Source: a virus
Taxonomy: Duplodnaviria > Heunggongvirae > Uroviricota > Caudoviricetes
Virus record (IMG/VR): IMGVR_UViG_2537562020_000011
Span: 1 to 23,053 of that record
Reading direction: 5' to 3' (one strand)
DNA: 23,053 nt
Positions 3,001-6,000 of this stretch are shown piece after piece (the stretch's first letter is position 1; each line of letters begins with the position of its first letter). The position numbers were made by a program.

Positions 3001-6000
3001 TGCGCATTGATGCCGAGATACGCTTCCAGTCTTCGCGGTCGTTGTCGATAACTTCATTTTTTGCCCAGCGATGGATGCTGCCGTCAATGTTTCCGGCATC
3101 CACATCACCAGGCCAGAGAGCGTAGGCCAGTTCATCATCCAGTGTTTTCCATGTCTGCTTGTATTCGCGATGAATGGCAGCAATGACCGGGTTGATTTTT
3201 CCTGTTGAATTTTCAGTGTCTGTTGATTGGCTCTGGCGCGGGCGAGATCAACAACAGACGTGTATTTTCCGGTTTCCTTGCGTTCACCTTCGCGACGTTT
3301 TTTCCAGATGCGCATCTCTGCCTGAATTTCGGGCCATTTGGCACCAGGCTTACATTTATGCTTAACCCACCCGATGGCATGCAGCTTAAGCTCCGGATAC
3401 ATGGCGTTAACTTCTGGCATTTTCATCAACGCTTCAACGATATGTCCGTCGAATGTTGCCATGTCTTCCTGCAACAATTCCTGCGCGCTAATCACCATAT
3501 CAACGGTGATGTTTTCACATGTGTCGAACTTAACCATGACAGCGTTCTGTACTTCAGGGGCCAGCTTGTCAAAAGTGACGTTCATCGGATCTGATTCAGT
3601 CTCAACCGGGACAAAGGAAGCAGACTCCTCATCCCAGCGGTTTTCCTGCATATATTCAGCATCCCAGGAATCGAGGGCAGGGCGGGGTATACCGGGTTTA
3701 TCCTCGCAAACAAGAAATTTATAAGCGCAGTCCTGAGCAGCCGGATAATGTTCCAGGAATTGCCAGTGAAATTTTGCGCGGGCGCGACGTTCATCACCAG
3801 CTTCAATGGCAGTGGCTACAGCGACTGCACCTTCTTCCTTTATTGCCTGTTCGTCCGGAATGGCGGCGCAAATAAAGACTTTACTCATTTTGTTTTAACC
3901 TCATTACAGATTTAAGGATGAACAAATCCCTGCCATTGCTGGCATATAAAAATGAAACCGGATATTAATTACGGTGCTGTTTTAAGTCCTGCCGGGATTT
4001 CGTTATTATCCTGGTGAATAACTTTATCGACCGGATAACAGTTACCGGGAATTTTCTGTTCCACTGCGGCAACCATGCATTCTTTCATTGAGCCGTATAC
4101 GCCAGTAACCATGTCAACCGGTTCACCGGAAACAAGAAAAACCGTCAGAACAAGTGCAAATGTTGTATTCATTGCCAGCATCCTTTTTGCATCAGGCGTA
4201 AACGGGCCAGCATTGAAACAATGCATATTTTATCCAATAGCTCCCGTTCTTGTTTCCTCTTGTTAATGGCATCTTCAGTAAATACTGGGTTACTGATAGT
4301 GACACCAATTTCAAAACAACCTTCAGACGTATTAACGTTTGGTAATAACGTTTTCATTATCGCACCCTCAACAATGAATTTTGTGATGCGGTGCCTGGTG
4401 CCTCCAGGTGACGTTAACCAGTTAACAATTAACGCCGGATACAGAACCCCACCCATAACTTGGTTTTAACTGTTCCGCGTGCGCTTAGCCGCATTCACCG
4501 CATCACAAAATTCACTTTAAAAAGGACGGCAGAGCAGTCACGGAGTAAAACTGATACCGCCAAACGCCACCAGAAAATTGATAACAGAGGGCGTTGCAGC
4601 GGGGTTGTCACTTAAGCGCATGGTCAACCTGACAACCCGGTGTCTCAATGGGGGAGGAATAACCCCGCCATACTTACCGCCGCGCCATTTCGCGGAGTGC
4701 CACAACCGGAAGCGCACGGTCGACGAAAATTTAACGACAGGCTATCTATGAACCAACTACCTCGCCGTGCGCTTTCGCGTTATGCCCTGACTTTTCAGGA
4801 AAATGCCCTTTCAGTAAACTGTCAGTGCCGGATGCTCACCCGTGTCCGGCGCACGCACTCCACCTCACCCGTGGAGAACCCCTTAATTACCAACCCTCAG
4901 GAGGGTGAAATGACTAGTAAAAATGTAAATATCCAGTTTAACCACGATGTTTCTCCTGCTGGACTTGCGGATGATCTCACCGCTATAAAAACGGCAATTA
5001 TGCTACTTGCTGCTAAGTTGCCTGCGTCATCAAAGCCAGCGGAAATTTGTGACTCATTGCGTAAGATGAATTCAACAAAATGCAATGAGATGGCATCACT
5101 TATTGAAAGTGCAATTGATTTTAATGATTAATCGAAATTTCATGGCTAACTGTAACCCTCCCATCTGTGGCGGGATGGTTTAAATCGCTGGGATTAATGC
5201 CGCACTCAGTAAAATGGTTCTTAAGGGGTTCTATCCGAATCCCTTTCTTTTTCATTAACAAGCCAAACCCCTTATCAATGATATCCATTAATTCCAGGAA
5301 GTATTTTTCATGTAAATCCTGGCTATCAGAGAGCCGCTTCTCTTCGTACAGACCGATAAAGGCACGACGCACGTTACCGGATATAGTATCGATGGTTTCT
5401 TTTTCTACGGTACTCAGGTCAAGAGTCGCCAGTTGGAAACGAACTATATTCGCTGCCATTTCCTGGAATTGCATTGGTAAATCTTTAAATTCCATTATTA
5501 GCCTCGTTGGTTAGCTATTAACGTGGGTATGTAATCATTCTGGCAATGCTTAATGCCGCTGCTTTTTCCAGCCTGGTGATATCCTGCTCCAGAGCGGACA
5601 GATTTTCAGCCTGCTTAGCCCTGGCTTCATTGGCCCATTTCAGATCCTGCGCTGCATTAATTTTCTGGCGCATCCACTCATAAAGTTCATCATCGGTATA
5701 GTCTGGCGCGATGATGACGGGTTCTCGTTTCTGCATACTGATTCCTCGCGGTGCTGTTTCCCCTTAACGCCGGGGTGGCGGAACAAAAACCTGCTGCATA
5801 GTTATTAAAGTTGAACCCTGCCGTCATGTTCTTACGCCTCGGGCTGGCTACTTACCCCCTGACCACTGCCTGGTAACTCGAAGTATTGCCCTGCATTCTG
5901 TGGGGCGGGGTGGGTTGGTATGTTGTTAAGGTAACAAGTGTTACCTTTCGAGTCAATGCAATGTTGCAAAAAGTACATTTGAGGGCGTGAAAAACCCGCA

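Follow-up and report, generated by a model that had tools for sequence, protein, structure and literature searches.

Positions 3969-5736 of the virus record IMGVR_UViG_2537562020_000011 very probably hold a leftward early operon of the dicBF type, part of a lambdoid prophage that lies beside ompW in Escherichia coli; the unit also carries an insert with two small genes, orf124 and orf73, and we read orf73 as a moron. Here "the window" means the whole stretch of 23,053 nucleotides (nt), and all coordinates are counted on that stretch. The operon type was first described in Qin, a prophage of E. coli K-12, and as far as sequence can test it, the region belongs to this type in every respect. The main outcome is a correction: this region, which a first-pass annotation had named as the likeliest place in the window for an uncharacterised host-takeover or phage-exclusion function, copies a prophage module that is among the best studied in E. 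coli, and the takeover and exclusion functions of that module are already characterised. Read along the minus strand, the operator and promoter are followed by ydfC, orf124, an extended untranslated stretch that holds DicF, and then dicB, ydfD and a ydfE-like exonuclease gene. The features, with lengths in amino acids (aa), are as follows.

5928-5956, minus strand: candidate leftward early promoter, with a -35 hexamer TTGACT at 5956-5951, predicted from sequence
5518-5736, minus strand: ydfC, 72 aa, 71 of 72 residues identical to K-12 YdfC
4896-5497: insert of 602 nt relative to K-12 Qin and phage Tritos, carrying orf124 and orf73, delimited by blastn and junction alignment
5121-5495, minus strand: orf124, with a conserved N-terminal module of ~55-60 aa and a swappable C-terminal part
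4910-5131, plus strand: orf73, a small gene convergent with orf124, encoding a predicted three-helix protein
4524-4576, minus strand: DicF small RNA (sRNA) gene (Rfam RF00039), with terminator stem and U-run
4169-4357, minus strand: dicB, 62 aa, cell-division inhibitor (PF05358, NF049927)
3969-4172, minus strand: ydfD-family gene (DUF1482, PF07358), 67 aa, its start overlapping the dicB stop

The region shows 99.3% identity with RefSeq E. coli chromosomes in which the prophage adjoins ompW and in which ydfC, dicB, a DUF1482 protein and two hypothetical proteins are annotated. The same arrangement is thus already present in RefSeq, with both orphans (orf124 and orf73) named "hypothetical" there. 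Part of the region is matched in 4762 of 5426 complete E. coli genomes, and the dicBF module is carried by most E. coli genomes. The first-pass annotation had given five open reading frames (ORFs) of 72, 124, 73, 62 and 67 aa, and all five were found at the bounds it reported. They do not fill the region as it had claimed, since about 550 nt (4358-4909) are non-coding and contain the DicF gene, which had been overlooked. Nor had the strand difference been noticed: the 73-aa ORF lies on the plus strand and is convergent with the 124-aa ORF, with an overlap of 11 nt.

DicF is located between ydfC and dicB in the untranslated stretch. Its match to RF00039 (4524-4575, minus strand) scores 70.8 bits (gathering score 48) and covers positions 1-52 of the 52 in the model, and its sequence, GGCGG...CCGUCCUUUUU, ends in the terminator stem and U-run. 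Identity with K-12 DicF is 51/53, with substitutions at nt 10 (A to G) and nt 51 (C to U). The change at nt 51 leaves the terminator stem paired, with G.U in place of G-C; nt 11-50 are the same as in K-12, and the change at nt 10 falls in the 5' region. A search of Rfam at a relaxed threshold over 4400-5000 returned nothing beyond DicF. According to PMC5069750, transcription of dicBF in K-12 begins upstream of the ydf genes, and DicF acts with Hfq to repress ftsZ and other mRNAs, its 3' region repressing ftsZ and pykA and its 5' end repressing xylR. By analogy with K-12, the DicF of the window would bind Hfq and repress ftsZ.

The 62-aa product matches the DicB family over its full length (residues 1-62 of 62), with 132.1 bits in Pfam PF05358 (cut-off 27, E = 5.7e-39) and 132.4 bits in NCBIfam NF049927 (cut-off 100), and 59 of its 62 residues are identical with K-12 DicB. 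The K-12 protein binds MinC and acts through it to block Z-ring formation and division, and it inhibits ManYZ and so blocks DNA entry, giving ~100-fold resistance to lambda-type phages (PMC6832061). With 95% identity to K-12 DicB, the window protein would be expected to share both the MinC-dependent division block and the inhibition of ManYZ.

The stop of dicB and the start of the 67-aa ORF overlap in an ATGA that reads CAATGAAT, and the 67-aa product begins with a hydrophobic stretch, FALVLTVFLVSG, with the top Kyte-Doolittle (KD) score among the five ORFs (KD(15) = 1.91). Both features had been pointed out in the first-pass annotation, and both occur in K-12 as well. This product matches PF07358 with 81.5 bits (cut-off 25, E = 3.9e-23) and also phrog_1092, it is identical with K-12 YdfD at 49 of 63 residues and has 4 extra C-terminal residues, and RefSeq names it either "DUF1482 family protein" or "lysis protein YdfD". 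K-12 YdfD reportedly showed lysis activity in work by Masuda in 2016. The hydrophobic N-terminus suggests that the window protein is membrane-anchored, and by its homology it may be lytic too. The Qin YdfD is described as a lysis protein in PMC10448788. The 72-aa product, encoded upstream of DicF, matches phrog_1744 and is named "protein YdfC" in RefSeq; it matched no Pfam or NCBIfam model. Downstream of ydfD, the ydfE-like exonuclease gene (1419-3888, minus strand) is broken into ORFs of 313 aa and 499 aa. In a 99%-identical locus of E. coli E1316 the gene is intact and encodes 823 aa; compared with that copy, single nucleotides are missing near 3220 and 2953, which causes the split. The gene of the window is either a pseudogene or the product of sequencing error.

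Since DicF, DicB, YdfD and YdfC are identified, the finding is mostly ordinary and for the most part already explained. In the K-12 orthologues the module provides division control (DicF and DicB), exclusion of lambda (DicB) and lysis (YdfD). The earlier idea of a host-takeover or exclusion site was therefore right in kind, as DicF and DicB block division, DicB excludes phages and YdfD lyses; the word "uncharacterised" does not hold for them, since these functions are characterised and the genes are named in RefSeq.

The operon is also likely to share its control with the immunity region. An operator palindrome, GGTAACA-N-TGTTACC (5930-5945), overlaps the candidate promoter with the TTGACT hexamer, and GTAAC-N5-GTTAC occurs in three copies, one upstream of ydfC (5930-5944) and two between the repressor and cro genes (6693-6707 and 6741-6755). 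The repressor gene (6019-6792) encodes a protein with helix-turn-helix (HTH) and S24 self-cleavage domains in Pfam, and the three palindromes are likely to be operators of this S24-type repressor. Because the operator motif is shared and the repressor is of the self-cleaving S24 type, the operon would be under repressor control, silent in the lysogen and on at induction, and SOS-linked induction would turn dicBF on. Just upstream of ydfC, a second variable slot is evident at 5737-5830 in comparison with loci L002, L003 and L008-L011. In K-12 and many other genomes this slot is occupied by ydfA and ydfB, both of which are missing from the window; in PEC148 (L011) it holds an oppositely oriented gene for an "ECs_2282 family putative zinc-binding protein", and in FRIK944 (L010) a gene for a 99-aa hypothetical protein.

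The 602-nt insert begins 20 nt after ydfC, and a Shine-Dalgarno sequence stands ahead of both of its genes. The orf124 product matches phrog_6937 and, through its N-terminus, phrog_1363, 2151 and 9419 as well, all of them PHROG families without a function; every one of its 238 homologues is annotated as "hypothetical". The ratio of nonsynonymous to synonymous substitution rates (dN/dS) of orf124 is 0.35 overall and 0.21 in the C-terminal half. Its AlphaFold2 (AF2) model shows three helices and a disordered tail, with a predicted local distance difference test (pLDDT) score of 60. The orf73 product matches phrog_7249, again a PHROG family without a function, and its AF2 model has a pLDDT of 69.5, so that confidence in both models is moderate. 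For both proteins, searches of Pfam and NCBIfam at default thresholds, of Pfam at E <= 10, and of PDB by sequence and by profile returned no function; no Pfam toxin-antitoxin domain was found in either, and PADLOC gave no match at E <= 0.1. The predicted folds resemble generic helical bundles only, with no toxin or antitoxin fold, and Foldseek hits against viral models were at E > 0.7. The literature that was searched did not describe the cassette, which does not prove that no such description exists.

On the plus strand, orf73 is accompanied by a set of candidate expression signals:

4792-4797 and 4815-4820, plus strand: -35 TTTTCA and -10 TAAACT of a candidate orf73 promoter, predicted from sequence
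4822-4909, plus strand: structured 5' leader of orf73, with two hairpins bearing UCACCC loops, followed by the Shine-Dalgarno sequence
5223-5253, plus strand: intrinsic-terminator-like hairpin with T-run, from a terminator scan, located inside the codons of orf124

Across eight loci the spacer of TTTTCA-N17-TAAACT (4792-4820) varies and the hexamers do not, and a metagenome copy bears an extended -10 element, TGATAAAAT, at the same offset. K-12 has this candidate promoter too, opposite dicBF, with its -10 at about 1,649,137-1,649,142. The leader is kept in the Salmonella and metagenome copies described below. Its plus-strand fold has an energy of -34.9 kcal/mol and a z-score of -3.3, whereas the minus strand folds no better than its shuffles (z about +0.4). 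Helix 1 contains three invariant G.U pairs together with C to U changes that pair only in the plus-strand RNA, and helix 2 contains two compensatory changes. The hairpins were also considered as minus-strand elements of the dicBF mRNA, and this was rejected, as the minus-strand z-score is +0.36 and the three G.U pairs would become A.C mismatches. Both UCACCC loops have their complement in the GGGUGA of the Shine-Dalgarno region. The terminator-like hairpin is kept in the 91-aa slot allele (L009), in which homology to the window starts exactly at this hairpin. A plus-strand frame of 163 aa, running from a GTG at 4640 (4640-5131), passes through the leader into orf73; it is treated as coincidental because in every allele the conserved start is the one with the Shine-Dalgarno sequence and ATG at 4910.

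Comparison among genomes indicates that the interval between ydfC and DicF is a polymorphic slot, in which small plus-strand ORFs of 73, 77, 91 or 92 aa stand behind one leader. The full cassette of the window is present in 84 of the 5426 complete E. coli genomes (about 1.5%), and the N-terminal module of orf124 in 1357. Homology of the E. coli genomes to the window cassette breaks at 5121 (the orf124 stop), 5223, ~5332 and ~5383. Three further alleles of the slot were seen:

Leftward gene of 106 aa with a convergent ORF of 91 aa
Leftward gene of 133 aa with a convergent ORF of 92 aa
Leftward gene of 135 aa with a convergent ORF of 77 aa

The leftward proteins have ~55-63 N-terminal residues in common and then diverge completely; orf124 and the 133-aa allele, for example, show 89% identity over aa 1-63 and no similarity beyond. 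Similarity between partner ORFs is confined to the 91-aa and 92-aa products (28% identity), and the others are unrelated. The upstream sequence through AGGAGGGTGAAATG is common to all partner alleles, and divergence sets in directly after the start codon. In K-12 and Tritos, which have no cassette, the upstream element is kept and the Shine-Dalgarno sequence and ATG are lacking.

The ~85-nt element and orf73 also recur together at 75-79% nucleotide identity outside such prophages, in a Salmonella element of the Cox/Int type at pheA and in a metagenome contig, and in Salmonella, too, orf73 runs against the early genes that flank it. The Salmonella element, from S. enterica serovar Muenchen (L012, 2243-3735), encodes a Cox-like protein, an integrase, and Phage_ASH, "Derepression" and Exonuc_VIII domains. 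It also contains a convergent 57-aa ORF (L012, 3150-3323) that amounts to the C-terminal domain of the 133-aa E. coli allele standing alone (78% identity over 40 aa).

From these features we read orf73 as an autonomous antisense moron, likely expressed in the repressed prophage. It would form a self-contained antisense unit of weak promoter, structured leader, orf73 and terminator, and would be expressed while the leftward promoter is repressed. As for the criteria of a moron, the terminator-like hairpin and the occurrence in unrelated elements were both seen, and the promoter is a weak match to the consensus with invariant hexamers.

Several points weigh against reading the stretch as a dicBF-type operon that works as in K-12 and carries a moron. 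The absence of ydfA and ydfB means that upstream transcript processing or stability may differ from K-12. The substitution at nt 10 of DicF lies in the 5' region that pairs with xylR in K-12, and the targeting of xylR by this DicF may, to judge from that change, differ as well. The YdfD-family protein matches no NCBIfam model, and its identity to the K-12 protein that was tested is only 78%. No functional role for YdfC, orf124 or orf73 came from the searches above. The orf73 promoter agrees with the consensus at 8 of 12 positions and was not called in the promoter scan, and both compensatory pairs of helix 2 come from the single Salmonella sequence.

A broader interpretation of the slot can be put forward tentatively, as a possibility we hold to be unlikely. 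The ydfC-DicF spacer of dicBF-type prophages could be a dedicated cargo slot opposite the early operon, with a conserved weak promoter, a ~85-nt leader whose UCACCC loops can pair with GGGUGA, and a fixed Shine-Dalgarno sequence and ATG. Unrelated ORFs (73, 77, 91 and 92 aa) would be swapped into it by recombination, and the C-terminus of the leftward gene would be remodelled as a by-product. The ORFs would be accessory cargo expressed in the lysogen (superinfection exclusion, defence or counter-defence), and the leader would act as a shared translational switch. If this were true, such a lysogen-expressed cargo site would be a convenient place to seek new small exclusion or defence proteins. 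The contents of the slot could also affect DicF production in pathogenic strains. The remaining interest is modest and lies in two small genes whose slot is filled differently from prophage to prophage, behind one leader and start codon.

It is improbable that orf73 is not a gene at all, being either a chance antisense ORF or part of a plus-strand transcript that serves only as an antisense RNA modulating orf124 or the processing of the DicF precursor. Its position is antisense within the operon, an indexed search yielded homologues in only 6 protein clusters, the predicted plus-strand transcript would show full complementarity to orf124 in its 3' part and to the spacer upstream, and the complementarity of both leader loops to their own Shine-Dalgarno region suggests a role at the RNA level. 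However, three independent comparisons, with copies at 93%, 76% and 70% nucleotide identity, give dN/dS of 0.17-0.20 with changes mostly at the third codon position, and on these ratios a chance ORF was rejected. The start has a canonical Shine-Dalgarno sequence (AGGAGG, 6 nt before the ATG), and the ORF is intact in unrelated genomic contexts. Moreover, an exhaustive HMMER search with an orf73 profile found, besides spurious giant repetitive proteins, a handful of relatives of 70-107 aa that share a conserved motif. The plus-strand transcript may still have an antisense regulatory role as an additional effect. All five ORFs are genuine genes, as indicated by a family match or near-identity to a K-12 protein and, for the two orphans, by purifying selection.

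The convergent, 3'-overlapping layout recurs in at least four alleles with both sides differing in sequence, and a variable C-terminus facing a variable partner resembles polymorphic toxin/immunity loci. These would be expected if orf124 and orf73 were a cognate two-gene system (toxin-antitoxin, toxin-immunity or defence pair) with co-evolving variable parts. We regard such a pairing as highly improbable because the genes are separable, the C-terminal type and the partner assort independently, and the Salmonella copy is paired with the 57-aa ORF. In Salmonella orf73 adjoins an unrelated 129-aa gene and that 57-aa ORF; orf124 occurs without a partner in L008, and orf73 without orf124 in L012-L014. 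C-terminal type A is found with a 73-aa partner, a 91-aa partner or none, and the type B domain with a 92-aa or a 73-aa partner. The lack of a PADLOC match and of any toxin or antitoxin fold also argues against it. A toxin-antitoxin or other cognate pair was accordingly rejected, as the two genes are separable and show no co-variation.

Equally doubtful is the view of the first-pass annotation that five uncharacterised early genes stand here in place of N, kil, cIII, sieB and rex and encode a new takeover or exclusion function: the early-left operon position is correct and profile and PADLOC searches gave no established function for orf124, orf73 or YdfC, but the 62-aa product is DicB, the 67-aa product belongs to the YdfD family, DicF separates them from the genes upstream, and none of the five ORFs matches an N, Kil, CIII, SieB or Rex model in Pfam or NCBIfam, not even when the threshold was relaxed to E <= 10 for those of 72, 124 and 73 aa. 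Its statement that none of the ORFs could be matched to a known family fails for the 62-aa (DicB), 67-aa (YdfD/DUF1482) and 72-aa (YdfC) products and stands for those of 124 and 73 aa. Likewise, the profile and structure-based searches that it recommended returned families for DicB and YdfD and nothing functional for the 124-aa and 73-aa products. It had named as decisive a confident match to early proteins whose roles are established; such homology was found for the 62-aa and 67-aa products, by name only for the 72-aa product, and not for the other two. Family matches already largely refute this view for three of the five ORFs.

Elsewhere in the window, a hok/sok-type type I toxin-antitoxin locus is located at 11430-11605 (plus strand; Rfam sok, 121.6 bits). 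A mok-like ORF of 70 aa (11543-11755, plus strand) overlaps sok, and the C-terminal 51 aa of its product resemble a Hok toxin (MKQQKAMLIALIVICLTVIVTALV...). Genes for two tRNAs, tRNA-Met(CAT) at 16695-16770 and tRNA-Arg(TCT) at 16868-16944, both phage-borne and on the plus strand, lie just before a rise in G+C content from ~0.49 to ~0.58-0.62 that spans ~17,000-22,500. The gene at the cII position (6997-7422, plus strand) is annotated as "toxin YdaT family protein" in a near-identical RefSeq locus.

Among known systems, the closest comparison is with the dicBF operon of K-12 Qin (ydfA-ydfB-ydfC-dicF-dicB-ydfD-ydfE). Both have the order ydfC, DicF, dicB, ydfD, exonuclease, the 4-nt dicB/ydfD overlap is identical in the two, and each is found directly to the left of a cI/cro-type immunity region. 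In contrast to Qin, the window has no ydfA or ydfB and has the 602-nt insert with orf124 and orf73. Its repressor is a full LexA-like protein with HTH and S24 domains, whereas that of Qin is the short DicA, and its prophage, at ompW, looks largely complete, whereas Qin is a cryptic remnant. The same operon with the same ydfC-DicF slot is found in PPompW phages, in O157:H7 prophages and in phage Tritos, the last of which has the same module and gene order with DicF annotated. Many lambdoid prophages of pathogenic E. coli carry a gene of the orf124 family with a convergent small ORF; they differ in the slot, where the leftward gene has 106, 124, 133 or 135 aa and the partner has 73, 77, 91 or 92 aa or is absent. 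Similar to phage morons, orf73 has its own Shine-Dalgarno sequence, candidate promoter, leader and terminator, is oriented against the early operon and occurs in unrelated prophages. Unlike them, several unrelated ORFs are found here behind one leader, Shine-Dalgarno sequence and ATG at a fixed slot, and this shared leader looks more like a site of cargo exchange than a one-off insertion.

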